A stretch of DNA of 64,000 nt from the NCBI GenBank assembly GCA_048885525.1, contig JBHLLP010000008.1, positions 47,735-111,734 of the forward strand, written 5' to 3'. The notes under the pieces are model-generated. The model was given only the letters and a program-made list of their open reading frames with translations, did not search any database and was not told the DNA's origin. Each line of letters opens with the position of its first letter. Within the stretch, counting starts at the first letter, position 1. A program made the position numbers and the translations under genes. This stretch comes from Candidatus Hermodarchaeota archaeon (GTDB lineage Archaea > Asgardarchaeota > Lokiarchaeia > Sigyniarchaeales > SOKP01). Shown in pieces: positions 39,181 through 47,253 of this stretch.

Positions 39181-39756
39181 TTATTTCAATGGAACATATT
39201 TAGAACTTCTTGTAGCTCCGATCCCAGGTGAACCATGTTGGACTCTTTTTCGAGTTAATGAGAATTCACCTAAATAATGACCAATCATTTCAGGTTTTAT
39301 ATCAACTACTTCAAAAATTCTCCCATTATATACTCCAATTTTTAGACCTACCATTTCAGGGAATATAATCATATCTCTTACATGTGTTCGTGTAAGCAAA
39401 TCTTTTCCTCTTTTTTTAGCCCTATAAGCCCTTCTTAATCTTTCAAGTAACTTTTTTTGTCTTGGAGGTAAACCACGTTTTAATGAACGTCGTGCTCTTG
39501 CGGGTAATAGTTGAATAAATTGATCCATGTTCATTTTCTTTAACTCCTCTAATGTATATCCTCTATATTTGAACCTTAACCGATCTAACTCTACTTCGGT
39601 GTCAATATCTCCTTCTTCTTCTAAATCTTCTTCCTTTTCCTTCTCAATATCAGTTTCTATCTCTTTCTCAGAATCTGAACCTTTTTCTAATTCACTATTC
39701 AATTCTTCCTCTAATTTTTCTGATCCTTTTTCATCAGATTGTTCATCCGGAGCCAT
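39181..39756 (-). CDS. rps19: 30S ribosomal protein uS19 with long acidic N-terminal extension
   Basis: [41 protein letters not shown]. Confidence 0.97.
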
Positions 39757-39984: not shown

Positions 39985-40659
39985 TTATTCATATTTATTT
40001 GGATTAAAAACGCGATTTATATCACGCTCATCAAATAATCCATTCCAACTTTCTTTAAGAATCACAAATTTATTTTTTTCTTTATTGGGATTAATAACAG
40101 AATGATAAGTATTTATGGGGTTTTGAAATATTGTCCCAGTTTTAACAAAATAGTACACTCTATCCCTATTAATAATAATAGGTTCACCCTCCAAAATTTT
40201 CCATACTTCATTTCTATATTGATGTAACTGAATTGAAAGCCCATATTCTGGACGTACAAAAATTAGATTATAATTTGGATAAGAAAATTTAAAACTATAC
40301 CATTTTGGTAGGGTATCTATATAGCCTTTGGGAATATTATATCTTTTTTTAAATATTTCTGGACTTAGAGGTATCTTTTGTGAAGATTCATATTTAAATG
40401 GATCATAAATTATTAAATGGTTTGAAATATCTTGGTTATAATAGAGATCAAGTGGACAATTTCCATTATTTATTATCATGTAAAAAGAGCCTGGCTTAAT
40501 TAATAAATCTGAACGCGAAATCCCTTCAGTTTTAAAATTTATACCGTTAATTAAGAAAATATTGTGAAAATTTTCCTTATCAACTTCAATTTTTAAATTT
40601 TTTGGACCATTTTTTCTAAAACCTGTACTTCGTAAGGCACCTATTTTTTCATGAATCAA
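39985..40659 (-). CDS. Cupin-domain protein (type II mannose-6-phosphate isomerase C-terminal-like)
   Basis: LSIQLHQYRNEVWKILEG, NP..TYHSVIN, FDERDI.R. Confidence 0.7.
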   Translation of the reverse strand: MIHEKIGALRSTGFRKNGPKNLKIEVDKENFHNIFLINGINFKTEGISRSDLLIKPGSFYMIINNGNCPLDLYYNQDISNHLIIYDPFKYESSQKIPLSPEIFKKRYNIPKGYIDTLPKWYSFKFSYPNYNLIFVRPEYGLSIQLHQYRNEVWKILEGEPIIINRDRVYYFVKTGTIFQNPINTYHSVINPNKEKNKFVILKESWNGLFDERDINRVFNPNKYE

Positions 40660-40675
40660 ATTTAATACTCCTTCA

Positions 40676-41641
40676 TTACTCCCTTAAATTTAATTCTCTT
40701 ACTCTCATTCGAATTTCATTTAGAAAAGGCATTGAATCTTGGGCCCCTTTTCTCGTGACTGCAATTGAAGCTGCTATATTTGCGTATTTCGAAGCATCTA
40801 AGACTGAATTACCTTTACTTAACATACTTGCCAAAACCCCAACAAAACAATCACCAGCTCCAACTGTATCCACAGCTTTCACTTCAGGTGCTCTTACTTC
40901 GAAAAATTTTTCAGTTTTTTTTTCAAAAATTATACATCCTTTACTTCCTAATGTTGTTATAACATATTTTATTCCTAAGTTTGCAAGTTGTTTTGAAATA
41001 TGAATAATTCTTTGTTTTCCCTTCTCTTTTAAATTCTTGAACCCTAATAAAGAATATAAACGATAGAGTTCACCCTCATTTGGAATAATTATATCAATTT
41101 TTTTTAAAATATCAATTGGAATGTTTTTTAGTGGAGCTGGATTTAGAATTTTAATTACATTACCTTCAGATGCGATTGAAAATATTTCTTTAATAGTGTT
41201 TATTGGGATTTCCATCTGGACAACAACTGAATTTGCATTTTTAATGACGAGGGATCTAGCTATAATTTCTTCAGAATTCAGTTTAAAATTTGCTCCTGGG
41301 GCTACGCTTATCATATTTTCTCCATTTTCGTCAATTAATATAAAAGCCACTCCGCTCGGTTCTTCCGAATCTCTGATAATGTAATCCATATTAATACCTT
41401 CATTTTTTAATCGAGAAACCATCTGATCCCCAAATAGATCGAGACCGATTTTCCCAATATAAAAAGTTGTAGTTCCCGATCTCACAGAAGCAACTGCTTG
41501 ATTTGCTCCTTTTCCACCAAGGGTTTGTTTAAATACTCCTCCTGTAACTGTTTCTCCAGGATTTGGAAGTCTCTTAGAATAAATATTTAAATCCATATTA
41601 CTAGAACCAATTATAAGCACATAATTAGTTTCTTCAGACAT
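40676..41641 (-). CDS. rbsK: Ribokinase (PfkB family)
   Basis: GSSNMDL, GGKGANQAVA, NPAP, PNEGE, DTVGAGDCF. Confidence 0.95.
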   Translation of the reverse strand: MSEETNYVLIIGSSNMDLNIYSKRLPNPGETVTGGVFKQTLGGKGANQAVASVRSGTTTFYIGKIGLDLFGDQMVSRLKNEGINMDYIIRDSEEPSGVAFILIDENGENMISVAPGANFKLNSEEIIARSLVIKNANSVVVQMEIPINTIKEIFSIASEGNVIKILNPAPLKNIPIDILKKIDIIIPNEGELYRLYSLLGFKNLKEKGKQRIIHISKQLANLGIKYVITTLGSKGCIIFEKKTEKFFEVRAPEVKAVDTVGAGDCFVGVLASMLSKGNSVLDASKYANIAASIAVTRKGAQDSMPFLNEIRMRVRELNLRE

Positions 41642-41862: not shown

Positions 41863-42177
41863 ATGGCTAAGGATAAAGTTATTGGAGCCATAGTAATGAT
41901 TGTTGGCATTCTCATTGCGATCATCTATACCATGGGGTCGATTGTAGATTTATTGTTTGACACAATCTGGAATAACCCAAATTGGGATTCATGGATTAGA
42001 ATCTTTGGAATAGACTGGCTTGACTGGAAACTGTTTGTGGTCGCACCTCTTTGGCTTTTAGTAATACTTATTGCTATCATAGCTATTTGGATTGGTTATA
42101 GTATGTTAACTACCCCTGCGCCCGTTCCACTTGAAGAATTAGAGGAGGAATTAGCTGCAGAAGAAGCCGAGGAATAA
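41863..42177 (+). CDS. Two-TM membrane protein, DPM2-like
   Basis: KDKVIG...IYT...LF and VVAPL...IWIGYSMLTT, then acidic tail; pattern matches DPM2 by eye. Confidence 0.6.
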   Translation: MAKDKVIGAIVMIVGILIAIIYTMGSIVDLLFDTIWNNPNWDSWIRIFGIDWLDWKLFVVAPLWLLVILIAIIAIWIGYSMLTTPAPVPLEELEEELAAEEAEE

Positions 42178-42227
42178 GTTATAATACAAATTTTCTTTTT
42201 TTTATTTTAAATTTTATTTGAATTATA

Positions 42228-43352
42228 TTAATTTAAACTTTCCTTTAATTTAGACATTCTAATTGTTCCATCATCATGGCAACTAAAGATTAATTTCTTT
42301 TCTTTTAGAAATTGAATCATATTTATACAGGAATGATATTTTTTAATACATAATATTTTACCTGTTTTTTCTTCAATAATGAGGAGCTCTCCTCTAGTAG
42401 TGCCAGCAAGAATAAATAAATTATCCTGATTTACTATAATTCTTAAAACCTCAATATTAAATCCTATAGTTTCCCAAATAACCTCTAGAAATTCATTTAA
42501 ACAAATTATATTTGAAGTAAATTCAATTTTTTCAATTGGTACTGCATCATTAAGATAATCAAAAGAATAAGAACTAACGAGAAGTTTATTATAAATCAAG
42601 TATGGATAAGAGATGCATTTCCAAACATAATTATTGAATTCTTTTGTTTTAATTTCATTTTTTGATTTCTTATTTATAATATGTAATTTCTTGTCATCTC
42701 CTCCACAAATTACTAATGTACCTTTAATTGTATTCATATAAGTAATAGATCGTAGTTTATTAGAATATTTTTTGTACCATAAAAGTTTTCCATTGGTTCC
42801 GTTAAAACTTCTGATAGTTCCATCATTTGCGCAGGCAATTATTTCTTTTTTAAGTCCCATTTTATCGTTCATAAAAATAATCATCTCTCCTATTCCCTCT
42901 TCAAAAACTTGACCCCAAATTAAATTACCAGTAAATGGGTCTAAAATCCTTAAAGTTTTATCAAGAGAACACGCAATTACTTCAATTATTTTATCATTAT
43001 TTATATCACCAATAATTATTCCACTAATAGAGGAATCAAATTTATGAGCCCATAAAAGCTCAAAATTATTTTTTGCATTAGGTTTAAAGACTCTTAATAA
43101 GCCATCCATTCCACCAAGAATTATTTCATTTTTTCCATCATTATCAATATCATAGACTTTTAAATGCCAAATCGGTAAATCTTTCGAAATTGTCTTTTCA
43201 TGAAGTAATTTGCCAATAAGGGATATAACCAACATAACTCCATTTCTAGTATAAGCCAAAATCTCAATTTGTCCATTACCATCAATATCAGCTAATTCAA
43301 TTCCTAAAATCGGTAAATTATATTTGAAATTCCAAAGTTCTTTAACTATCAA
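42228..43352 (-). CDS. WD40/FG-GAP beta-propeller protein
   Basis: Repeated DIDxDGxxEI, DGxxRxF, G.L.W blades. Confidence 0.85.
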   Translation of the reverse strand: MIVKELWNFKYNLPILGIELADIDGNGQIEILAYTRNGVMLVISLIGKLLHEKTISKDLPIWHLKVYDIDNDGKNEIILGGMDGLLRVFKPNAKNNFELLWAHKFDSSISGIIIGDINNDKIIEVIACSLDKTLRILDPFTGNLIWGQVFEEGIGEMIIFMNDKMGLKKEIIACANDGTIRSFNGTNGKLLWYKKYSNKLRSITYMNTIKGTLVICGGDDKKLHIINKKSKNEIKTKEFNNYVWKCISYPYLIYNKLLVSSYSFDYLNDAVPIEKIEFTSNIICLNEFLEVIWETIGFNIEVLRIIVNQDNLFILAGTTRGELLIIEEKTGKILCIKKYHSCINMIQFLKEKKLIFSCHDDGTIRMSKLKESLN

Positions 43353-43956: not shown

Positions 43957-45084
43957 TTACCATAGTAATATCCTGCCACACTTTTTGCATATTCCCTCAT
44001 TCACTTGAGTATTAAGGCAATTTTCATGATACGGTGCACTACAAGCTTGACAGCCATATATTTTTCCTGTATATTCAGTAAAATCAAAACCACAATAAAC
44101 ACAGATACTAGTAAATGAGAAATCAGAACTATTAACATTTAATTCAATTATTTGAGAAGTTTCTGTCAAACCACCTCCTCCAATGGCTGGTGCTAAATAA
44201 CCATTTTGTTGAGATGATGATACCCATTGTTCTTCTAAGGGAGGTTGATAATTCTGCTGTTGAGGTTGAGGAGTTTGCCAATTAGAAACATATTGAGATA
44301 ACGACGTTTTTGAAAGACCCATTTTTTGAGATATTTTCTCATCTAAAATATTAGTCAAAATTAATGCAGAAGCATATTTCCCCTTAGCTCCTCCTTTTTG
44401 TAAATGAGTATGACTGATCATATGAATTACTCGTCCACCTCTTTTTCCATAATTAAACTCGACAAGTACAGGAGATTCTCCCCACTTATTTTGAATTTCC
44501 CACGAGTTAATTAACACTCTAACGGCCTCATGATTTATAACTTGTATTGGGAACGAACGCGTTTCTAACCACCACCGAAATTCACTTTTTTTTGTGTTCT
44601 TAACCGTCTGTTTTTGCCACTTACTTTGTTGAATTTCACTTAGGACTCCTTCTAAGAAGGGGTGGTTTGGTTCAATAATTTGACAAGCAACGACAGCATC
44701 AGCAGTTTTTGCGTGATTCCAACGTATATAACCAGGAAAAATATTTTCAACGATACTACGTAGAGCCCAATCAGTAGTTATTAACCATCCCCCATTCATT
44801 ACAAAATCTCTAATTTTTGGATGAGAAGCATATGGGATATCACTTCCTGGACACCCTATAAGTACAACATCATACTCAGACAAGTCTTCTTTTATAATTT
44901 CTTTCTCTTTTACTACTTTCTTTAAGGATGCATACATATGTTCAATGACTTTTTTTGGTTTCTCATATCTTCCGCTAACAGCTAAAACTTTTCCATGTTT
45001 TTCAACAGCTTGGACCACATCTTTTTTATTTAGTGTTTCCATTTTGCGTTTCTTGACTTCCGAATATAAATCTTTCCAGCTCAT
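43957..45084 (-). CDS. Class I glutamine amidotransferase-like domain, Q-rich linker, C-terminal C4HC3 RING-like finger
   Basis: YDVVLIGCPG, FVMNGGWLITTDWA, GRVIH..SH; CxxC-x13-CxxC-x4-HxxC-x9-CxxC. Confidence 0.7.
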   Translation of the reverse strand: MSWKDLYSEVKKRKMETLNKKDVVQAVEKHGKVLAVSGRYEKPKKVIEHMYASLKKVVKEKEIIKEDLSEYDVVLIGCPGSDIPYASHPKIRDFVMNGGWLITTDWALRSIVENIFPGYIRWNHAKTADAVVACQIIEPNHPFLEGVLSEIQQSKWQKQTVKNTKKSEFRWWLETRSFPIQVINHEAVRVLINSWEIQNKWGESPVLVEFNYGKRGGRVIHMISHTHLQKGGAKGKYASALILTNILDEKISQKMGLSKTSLSQYVSNWQTPQPQQQNYQPPLEEQWVSSSQQNGYLAPAIGGGGLTETSQIIELNVNSSDFSFTSICVYCGFDFTEYTGKIYGCQACSAPYHENCLNTQVNEGICKKCGRILLW

Positions 45085-46746: not shown

Positions 46747-47253
46747 ATGCAAAAAGATACAACTAAGAAAGAAGAAATTATCGGGTCAGAAACTGTTTTA
46801 GAAAAAATTAAAAGCAGAACCCCATGGATTTTTGGAAAATCACTTAGGAAACCCAAAATTAGTTTCCCTAAAATGAGGCTTCCACGAATTTCCCTTCCAA
46901 TGCCATCAAGATCTTTAAGTATTGTAATAATCTTTATAATGTTGTTTGTTTTGCAGACAGGAGTCGTTTATATCCTCGTTCGAGACCCTCCTGCCCTAGG
47001 GGCTAATTCTGCTGGAGATCCTGTATTCATCTTTAACAATATTCATGAAAGTTTTATTATCGAAGGAATAATTGCTTCTATATTAATATTTTTTTGCTCA
47101 ATGGGATTTATTTTATTATATCAAGCATCTAAATATGTATATAATAAAAAGATGGCAATTTGGATTTTATTAATTGGTGTTTTGATGATTATTATAACCT
47201 TTATATTGCTACAATATATACTATCCGTGAAAACAGGAACAACTCAAATTTAA
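46747..47253 (+). CDS. Oligosaccharyltransferase accessory subunit, OSTC/DC2 (OST3/OST6 family)-like
   Basis: LPMPS, TGVVYILVRDPPALG, FIIEGIIASILIFFCSMGFILL, 3 TM; parallels OSTC GGIIYDVIVEPPSVG...YIMEGLASS..GFIIL. Confidence 0.8.
   Translation: MQKDTTKKEEIIGSETVLEKIKSRTPWIFGKSLRKPKISFPKMRLPRISLPMPSRSLSIVIIFIMLFVLQTGVVYILVRDPPALGANSAGDPVFIFNNIHESFIIEGIIASILIFFCSMGFILLYQASKYVYNKKMAIWILLIGVLMIIITFILLQYILSVKTGTTQI

Follow-up and report, generated by a model that had tools for sequence, protein, structure and literature searches.

Does a short gene of an Asgard archaeon encode a relative of DPM2, and which enzyme would such a protein assist? The locus that raises this question lies in a window of 64,000 nucleotides from the genome of a Candidatus Hermodarchaeota archaeon. 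In eukaryotes, DPM2 is the regulatory subunit of the dolichyl-phosphate-mannose (Dol-P-Man) synthase and a component of the GPI-GlcNAc transferase, and it usually figures as a protein of the eukaryotic ER. What precisely it does is still described as unknown (PMC5526996). The initial annotation had drawn attention to an open reading frame (ORF) at 41863-42177; this frame was recovered at exactly these coordinates on the + strand, with a translation that holds both of the stretches quoted there verbatim. The gene is followed by a short element just beyond its stop codon:

41863..42177, + strand: coding sequence for a small membrane protein of the DPM2/PIG-P family (104 aa plus stop); an ATG-to-TAA ORF of 104 codons, matched by the family profile A2 at E 2.5e-29.
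42191..42208, + strand: T-rich tract just 3′ of the stop codon, read from the sequence; possible archaeal oligo-T terminator.

The gene stands alone, with a divergent PfkB kinase gene on one side and a convergent beta-propeller gene on the other. Its start codon is fixed by the N-terminal MAKDK, which is invariant across the homologues. For the window protein there are 629 close homologues, which come without exception from Asgard-type metagenome genomes and are all annotated as 'hypothetical'. Comparison with one relative gave 88% identity at the protein level, with the same codon used at only 46% of the identical residues, a pattern of purifying selection on the protein. The homologues and the codon pattern show that the frame is a real coding gene. 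The identity to the relative compares with 64-74% for the neighbouring genes and 91% for the ribosomal proteins, and the family is conserved about as strongly as the latter. In the 50 bases downstream of the gene the GC content is 8% (29% for the window), and the T-rich tract may serve as an archaeal oligo-T terminator.

The base composition of the gene itself differs from that of its surroundings. Its GC3 was 0.37, compared with 0.16-0.23 in all neighbours, ribosomal protein genes included, and it was also raised (0.28) in the L006 orthologue. A hidden RNA-level constraint behind this value is unlikely and was rejected, since the synonymous codons show no greater conservation than those of the neighbouring genes.

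The encoded protein of 104 residues is a two-helix membrane hairpin, with a Trp-rich loop between the helices and an invariant tail, and is made up of the following parts:

41881..41952, + strand: transmembrane (TM) helix 1, residues about 7-30; starts with the conserved K-D-K-x-x-G and contains Y22-T23 (hydropathy maximum 2.63; AlphaFold2 (AF2) helix 3-34; aligns to TM1 of DPM2).
41953..42030, + strand: Trp-rich inter-helix loop, residues 31-56, from the alignments; part of it is without a DPM2 counterpart in hhalign.
42031..42108, + strand: TM helix 2, residues about 57-82; carries the invariant P62 and W-I-G-Y-S-M-L (hydropathy maximum 2.9; AF2 helix 55-83; aligns to TM2 of DPM2).
42109..42174, + strand: archaea-specific tail, TTPAPVPLEELEEEL and then an acidic end; invariant in the close homologues, with TTPPPxP(I/L)E family-wide.

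In the AF2 model (mean pLDDT 77.5), helices were predicted at residues 3-34, 55-83 and 90-103. Among the close homologues the invariant positions are K3-D4-K5, G8, Y22-T23, P62 and the entire stretch WIGYSMLTTPAPVPLEELEEEL. The Trp-rich loop has several residues more than that of mammalian DPM2 and that of the short-loop archaeal members of the family. A Foldseek search of the model against the PDB returned no match, and the PDB, by sequence search, holds no DPM2 chain; PDB sequence searches with the window protein and with both family profiles gave noise only, and no NCBIfam family matched.

Is the resemblance to DPM2 a true homology? Searched on its own, the window protein had PIG-P (PF08510) as its top Pfam hit (E 2e-4, 21.6 bits), below the cut-off of 39.3, and it did not match the Pfam DPM2 model (PF07297, gathering cut-off 27.3 bits) at E up to 1; the best hit of the DPM2 model in the source genome was a different ORF. 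At E up to 1, moreover, the PIG-P and DPM2 models also found matches in 9 of 14 control genomes. The unrelated hairpin family Phage_holin_3_6 (PF07332) gave sub-threshold hits in 43 of 61 family members, so that weak hits alone mean little. The control matches and the holin hits would suit a chance hydrophobic resemblance, the gene then encoding an unrelated two-TM protein, for instance a holin-like one. For many members the holin hits are of comparable strength (best E among the 61, 3.4e-6; highest score among the 20 members tabulated individually, 27.5 bits), and one unassigned ORF of the genome equals the window protein in its PIG-P score. The latter, a 257-aa multi-TM protein without a Pfam family (G000:C27:44561-44866; L002:1414-2187, - strand), was the second weak PIG-P hit and was rejected as noise; similar ORFs of ~260 aa occur in a related genus.

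The wider family was collected by a profile search of 1.8 billion representative proteins, which yielded 96 clusters. These share one plan: K-D-(K/Q)-x-x-G, TM1, a loop whose length varies, TM2 with WIG(W/Y)(T/S)M at its end, and lastly TTPPPxP(I/L)E followed by an acidic tail. In a six-frame search with the Pfam DPM2 model, 25 of the 151 Asgard genomes passed the cut-off, and none of the 14 controls gave a match at E up to 0.01. The best Asgard score reached 54.3 bits (E 3.7e-14), over model positions 2-71 of 75, and the loci above the cut-off coincide with those found by the family profile. When diverse Asgard orthologues were scanned as proteins, 7 of 10 passed the DPM2 cut-off as well. The orthologue with the best score shares 37% identity with the window protein (BLASTP 3e-10). 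At the same Asgard loci the PIG-P model also finds matches, but it never rises above its cut-off in the 151 genomes (best 38.6 vs 39.3). It is the top Pfam hit in 46 of the 61 family members (best E 2.3e-10), and its matches continue past TM2 into the tail, as far as model position ~100 of 121.

The family was then compared with DPM2 profile to profile by hhalign, the DPM2 side consisting of mammalian sequences only. This set (A5) was fetched with a 77-residue human DPM2 bait and then aligned. The bait retrieved named mammalian DPM2 at 99% identity and the alignment displays the human DPM2 segments given in the initial annotation, so that text was essentially right. The comparisons with mammalian DPM2 gave:

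Whole family A2, with the window protein as first row: 97.3%, E 1.7e-11, score 62.1, 75 columns, DPM2 residues 4-78 of 84.
Asgard-only profile: 98.0%, E 2e-13.
Bathyarchaeia-type profile: 96.8%, E or P value 3.1e-10.
Window protein alone: 22%, E or P value 9e-4.
Loki-only profile A1: 9%, E or P value 0.0037.

The profile-profile check that had been proposed for DPM2 at the outset gave 97-98%, at E 1e-11 to 1e-13, for the family and Asgard-only profiles. Reversed alignments scored only 13.7 and 14.2 against the real 62.1, and 60 shuffles that kept both the TM layout and the composition had a median of 16.8 and a maximum of 26.4. The residues paired between the window protein and DPM2 are D4-x3-G8 with D6-x3-G10, Y22-T23 with Y24-T25, P62 with P54, and Y79-x-M81-L82 with Y71-x-M73-L74. 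The shared two-TM layout and the D-x-x-x-G, YT, P and Y-x-ML elements noticed by eye in the initial annotation are thus all aligned, and its own worry that hydrophobic sequences might align spuriously is not borne out by the layout-keeping shuffles.

These data largely refute a chance resemblance, which we now regard as very improbable. The DPM2 model scores 54 bits over its full length on orthologues and separates them from all 14 controls at E up to 0.01; the hhalign score stands far above every shuffle; and the positions that agree include non-hydrophobic ones (D-x3-G, YT, Pro, Y-x-ML). The gene is a core syntenic one, with no phage or lysis context, and the window protein reaches only 18.7 bits with Phage_holin_3_6, for a cut-off of 28.4. 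We conclude from the profile comparisons that the archaeal family is homologous to DPM2/PIG-P, as had been proposed, and that the window protein is a divergent member. Its sequence alone would be insufficient; the homology follows from the Pfam passes of the wider family and from the hhalign scores with their clean controls. By the Pfam thresholds the window protein is closer to DPM2 than to PIG-P. The Loki-type clade has drifted beyond the reach of the Pfam DPM2 model, and we take the loop as the main reason, because part of the Trp-rich loop has no counterpart in DPM2.

How widespread is the family? The profile survey covered Asgard and Thermoproteota samples. The family profile detected it in 140 of the 151 sampled Asgard genomes (75 of the 78 high-quality ones), mostly in one copy, and in 188 of the 201 sampled Thermoproteota genomes, often in two. 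At least 503 relatives emerged from a motif scan of species genomes; those ranked in the top 80 are mostly from Bathyarchaeia. Several variants were noted on the way. Many Thermoproteota genomes (for example G211 and G301) have two or more family copies, compared with mostly one in Asgard. A longer form of 179-208 aa (P0125, P0181, P0185), which may be a paralogue, has the same N-terminal hairpin, no TTPPP tail and a C-terminal domain of about 110 residues that matched nothing in Pfam. In P0203 the family hairpin is fused to DUF4332, which is uninformative on function. An apparent fusion to a family 2 glycosyltransferase (GT2) in P0159, with the family sequence in the first 39 residues and a GT2-like part after it, was set aside as a likely artefact of a 1.4-kb contig on which the frame overlaps an opposite-strand gene.

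On which side of the family would the archaeal protein stand? It might be a PIG-P-like subunit of a GlcNAc-inositol-lipid transferase, that is, of an archaeal counterpart of the GPI-GlcNAc transferase, and not of a Dol-P-sugar synthase. The top rank of PIG-P for the window protein and for most members (46 of 61), the extension of these matches past TM2 into the tail, and a precomputed PF08510 tag on some family members all favour this, as do four copies of PIG-L-family deacetylases in the source genome. PIG-L, however, is a broad family that is not specific to GPI synthesis. No match to the PIG-A domain was found in this genome, which is 99.3% complete, and the only hit to PIG-C (GPI2), at E 0.1, was rejected because it belongs to a GPH/MFS-type (sugar) transporter. 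Not one of the 151 Asgard genomes passes the PIG-P cut-off, against 25 for DPM2, and the neighbouring genes indicate hexose activation rather than inositol-lipid synthesis. A PIG-P-type role is therefore improbable in our view.

The neighbours in question are found on both sides of the gene:

39985..40659, - strand: MPI-type cupin (mannose-6-phosphate isomerase C-terminal domain); Pfam PF01050, E 1.2e-6, 29.1 bits, cut-off 23.6.
40676..41641, - strand: PfkB-family sugar kinase, divergent from the DPM2-like gene; Pfam PfkB, E 2.1e-64; linkage kept in Loki-type relatives.
46747..47253, + strand: homologue of the OST3/OST6 membrane domain, 168 aa, 4.6 kb downstream; Pfam PF04756, 44.5 bits, cut-off 27.

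The DPM2-like gene is a core syntenic gene beside the ribosomal operon. The MPI-type cupin, the sole one in the genome, lies 1.2 kb away, and its linkage is kept in L006, L007, L008 and L129. The neighbours differ between lineages, yet they repeatedly belong to sugar activation. Across 20 diverse Asgard loci, taken from different families, a nucleotide-sugar gene is found within 5 kb in 12: PGM/PMM in 6, a SIS-domain sugar isomerase in 4, an NDP-sugar epimerase/dehydratase in 2, and a sugar-1-phosphate nucleotidyltransferase (NTP_transferase) and an MPI-type cupin in 1 each. Of 78 Bathyarchaeia loci, 18 have a sugar-1-phosphate nucleotidyltransferase inside 5 kb, and 14 loci have one directly downstream. 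As the genomes are related, these counts are not independent. A GT2 gene is rare at the same distance (0 of 20 Asgard, 3 of 78 Bathyarchaeia and 3 of 20 Thermoproteota loci). Two cases are close: in L146 a GT2 resembling Dol-P-Man synthase (DPMS) lies 64 bp from the DPM2-like gene on the same strand, and in L077 a membrane-less GT2 of 247 aa lies 342 bp away, also on the same strand; both have the P. furiosus DPMS as best match.

Other features of the neighbourhood were recorded. In the Bathyarchaeia loci L011-L090, S-adenosylhomocysteine hydrolase is encoded directly upstream on the same strand in 53 and within 5 kb in 57 of 78, which is probably lineage synteny and not a functional link. The convergent gene at 42228-43352 (- strand) encodes a 374-aa beta-propeller with FG-GAP, BBS2/BBS7-like and WD40-like repeat hits, and it keeps adjoining the DPM2-like gene in the Loki-type relatives L006-L008. 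At 43957-45084 (- strand), a protein of 375 aa has no clear family and a Cys-rich C-terminus weakly resembling PHD/C1-type zinc fingers; its position is conserved in L007 and L008. Ribosomal protein S19 (39181-39756, - strand) bears a highly acidic N-terminal extension of roughly 50-60 residues and measures 191 aa, compared with 135-184 aa in relatives.

OST3/OST6 is a eukaryote-like oligosaccharyltransferase subunit family, and the neighbourhood of its homologue recurs in L007 and L008. The DPM2-family protein could also belong to another part of the glycosylation or lipid-carrier machinery (AglB/OST3-6, a Dol-P-sugar flippase, or dolichol-phosphate recycling) instead of partnering a DPM1-type enzyme. 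This would agree with the linkage to OST3/OST6 at 4.6 kb, with a family that is near-universal while the repertoires of DPMS-like GT2s vary from genome to genome, and with the suggestion in a recent paper that archaeal DPMS may flip Dol-P-Man through its TM domain (PMC12992685). The OST3/6 linkage was, however, seen within Loki-type genomes only, and the known eukaryotic partners of the family are glycosyltransferase complexes. We hold this alternative to be rather unlikely, if more credible than a PIG-P-type role.

Which enzyme could then be the partner in this organism? The source genome has one DPMS-like GT2, on another contig (C9, 25703-26422; L108:1474-2190), a protein of 239 aa with no TM helix. 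Its best solved relative is the P. furiosus DPMS (E 5.2e-10), its homologues are named 'dolichol-phosphate mannosyltransferase' by one source, and it shows an invariant AGNxKD where DxD is expected in GT2 enzymes. An orthologue was found in only 6 of the 151 Asgard genomes (E 1e-40) and in none of the 4 other sampled genomes of the same genus; being so sporadic, it cannot be the general partner of the family and was rejected as such. Among its close homologues (70-89% identity) are proteins of MAGs labelled as bacteria, a sign of either a mobile accessory gene or the mis-binning of contigs. All 5 relatives searched encode short DPMS-like GT2s, often several of them. A DPM3 homologue was not found in the source genome.

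Taking these data together, we favour, at a probability of roughly 55%, a role for this divergent member of the DPM2/PIG-P family as a small accessory subunit, in the membrane, of dolichyl-phosphate sugar synthases. This function is drawn from the gene context and from the eukaryotic family, and is plausible. By analogy with eukaryotic DPM2, both ends of the protein would lie in the cytoplasm. The hairpin would hold or stabilise DPM1/DPMS-type polyprenyl (dolichyl)-phosphate sugar synthases, i.e. the short GT2s, at the membrane, or it would aid the binding of dolichyl phosphate. As DPM2 serves two complexes in eukaryotes, one small subunit may serve several DPMS-like GT2s here; such a shared helper would fit the relatives, because all five have short DPMS-like GT2s and often multiple ones. 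In humans, the C-terminus of DPM3 tethers DPM1. The proline-rich acidic tail of the archaeal protein might, speculatively, be a cytoplasmic docking element of the same kind.

A bolder version of the accessory-subunit reading can be formulated, which we consider doubtful. One gene, near-universal in Asgard and Thermoproteota, would be the direct ancestor of both DPM2 and PIG-P; its product, perhaps as a dimer, would be a module shared by several membrane-less dolichyl-phosphate sugar synthases, and the four-helix TM domain of type-III DPMS would thereby be rebuilt from separate genes. The acidic tail would be the tether that later passed to DPM3, and flipping of Dol-P-sugars might be a further activity. 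If this holds, the split DPM synthase of the human type would be an archaeal inheritance and not a eukaryotic invention.

The link between DPM2 and archaea is in itself no novelty. Kay et al. 2025 (Nature, PMC12872463) dated the duplication 'DPM2 and PIGP', 'of archaeal origin', and their supplement lists a PF07297 tree with Asgard as the sister lineage; Pfam, too, already tags a few Asgard members of the family. The suggestion of the initial annotation that such a subunit may be unrecognised in archaea is for this reason only partly true: some Asgard members carry Pfam tags and PF07297 has been treated as Asgard-derived, while our literature search found no paper that describes or characterises an archaeal DPM2-like protein. 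As the evolutionary link stands in a published table, the gain lies in annotation and testability and not in a new principle. What is new is the transitive proof of homology for a clade missed by the Pfam model, together with the wide distribution of the family, a tail motif specific to archaea, the sugar-activation context that keeps recurring and the exclusion of the obvious GT2 partner. Hundreds of 'hypothetical protein' annotations could receive names, and simpler systems become available for studying the role of the DPM2 family, the Sulfolobales being one if they are carriers as the Thermoproteota sample suggests. That archaea have a near-universal counterpart supports the view that part of the ER glycosylation machinery came from them, and it fits the proposal that the membrane-less type of Dpm1 is ancestral and of 'proteoarchaeal' origin (PMC4973528).

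How does the protein compare with the known systems? With DPM3 (PF08285), the membrane tether of human DPM1, it shares two TM helices followed by a cytoplasmic helix, and weak hits fall on TM2; none of these passes the cut-off, however, their E-values of 0.004 or worse are noise, and homology is unsupported. PIG-P/Gpi19 (PF08510), a subunit of the GPI-GlcNAc transferase, was placed in one gene tree with DPM2 by Kay et al. 2025 (PMC12872463). It is the Pfam family that ranks first for the window protein, with a match that reaches into the C-terminal extension beyond TM2; the differences are that no Asgard genome of the 151 rises above its curated cut-off and that the source genome is without a PIG-A domain or PIG-C. 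In the type-III archaeal DPMS of P. furiosus (5mlz), two pairs of TM helices are fused to a DPM1-like catalytic domain, whereas here the hairpin is a separate gene. Gandini et al. 2017 noted that DPM2 and DPM3 could correspond topologically to these two fused pairs, and they also pointed to sequence similarity of TMH1 and TMH3 to human DPM2 (PMC5526996); in a PDB search with the family profile, the TM domain of 5mlz stayed undetected even with E allowed up to 10.

From DPM2 itself the window protein differs in four respects. It fails the DPM2 HMM that its orthologues pass, its Trp-rich loop is longer by several residues than that of mammalian DPM2, and it ends in the archaeal tail TTP(P/A)PxP(L/I)EE with an acidic end where mammalian DPM2 has a short basic tail. 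Eukaryotic DPM2, furthermore, joins DPM1 and DPM3 and enhances the Dol-P-Man synthase, whereas the source genome has no detectable DPM3 and a DPM1-type partner of the archaeal protein is hypothetical. The likeness extends to the size class (about 80-100 residues for DPM2) and the two-TM hairpin, and within it to the D-x3-G that opens TM1, the YT at the end of TM1, the proline early in TM2 and the Y-x-M-L at its end.
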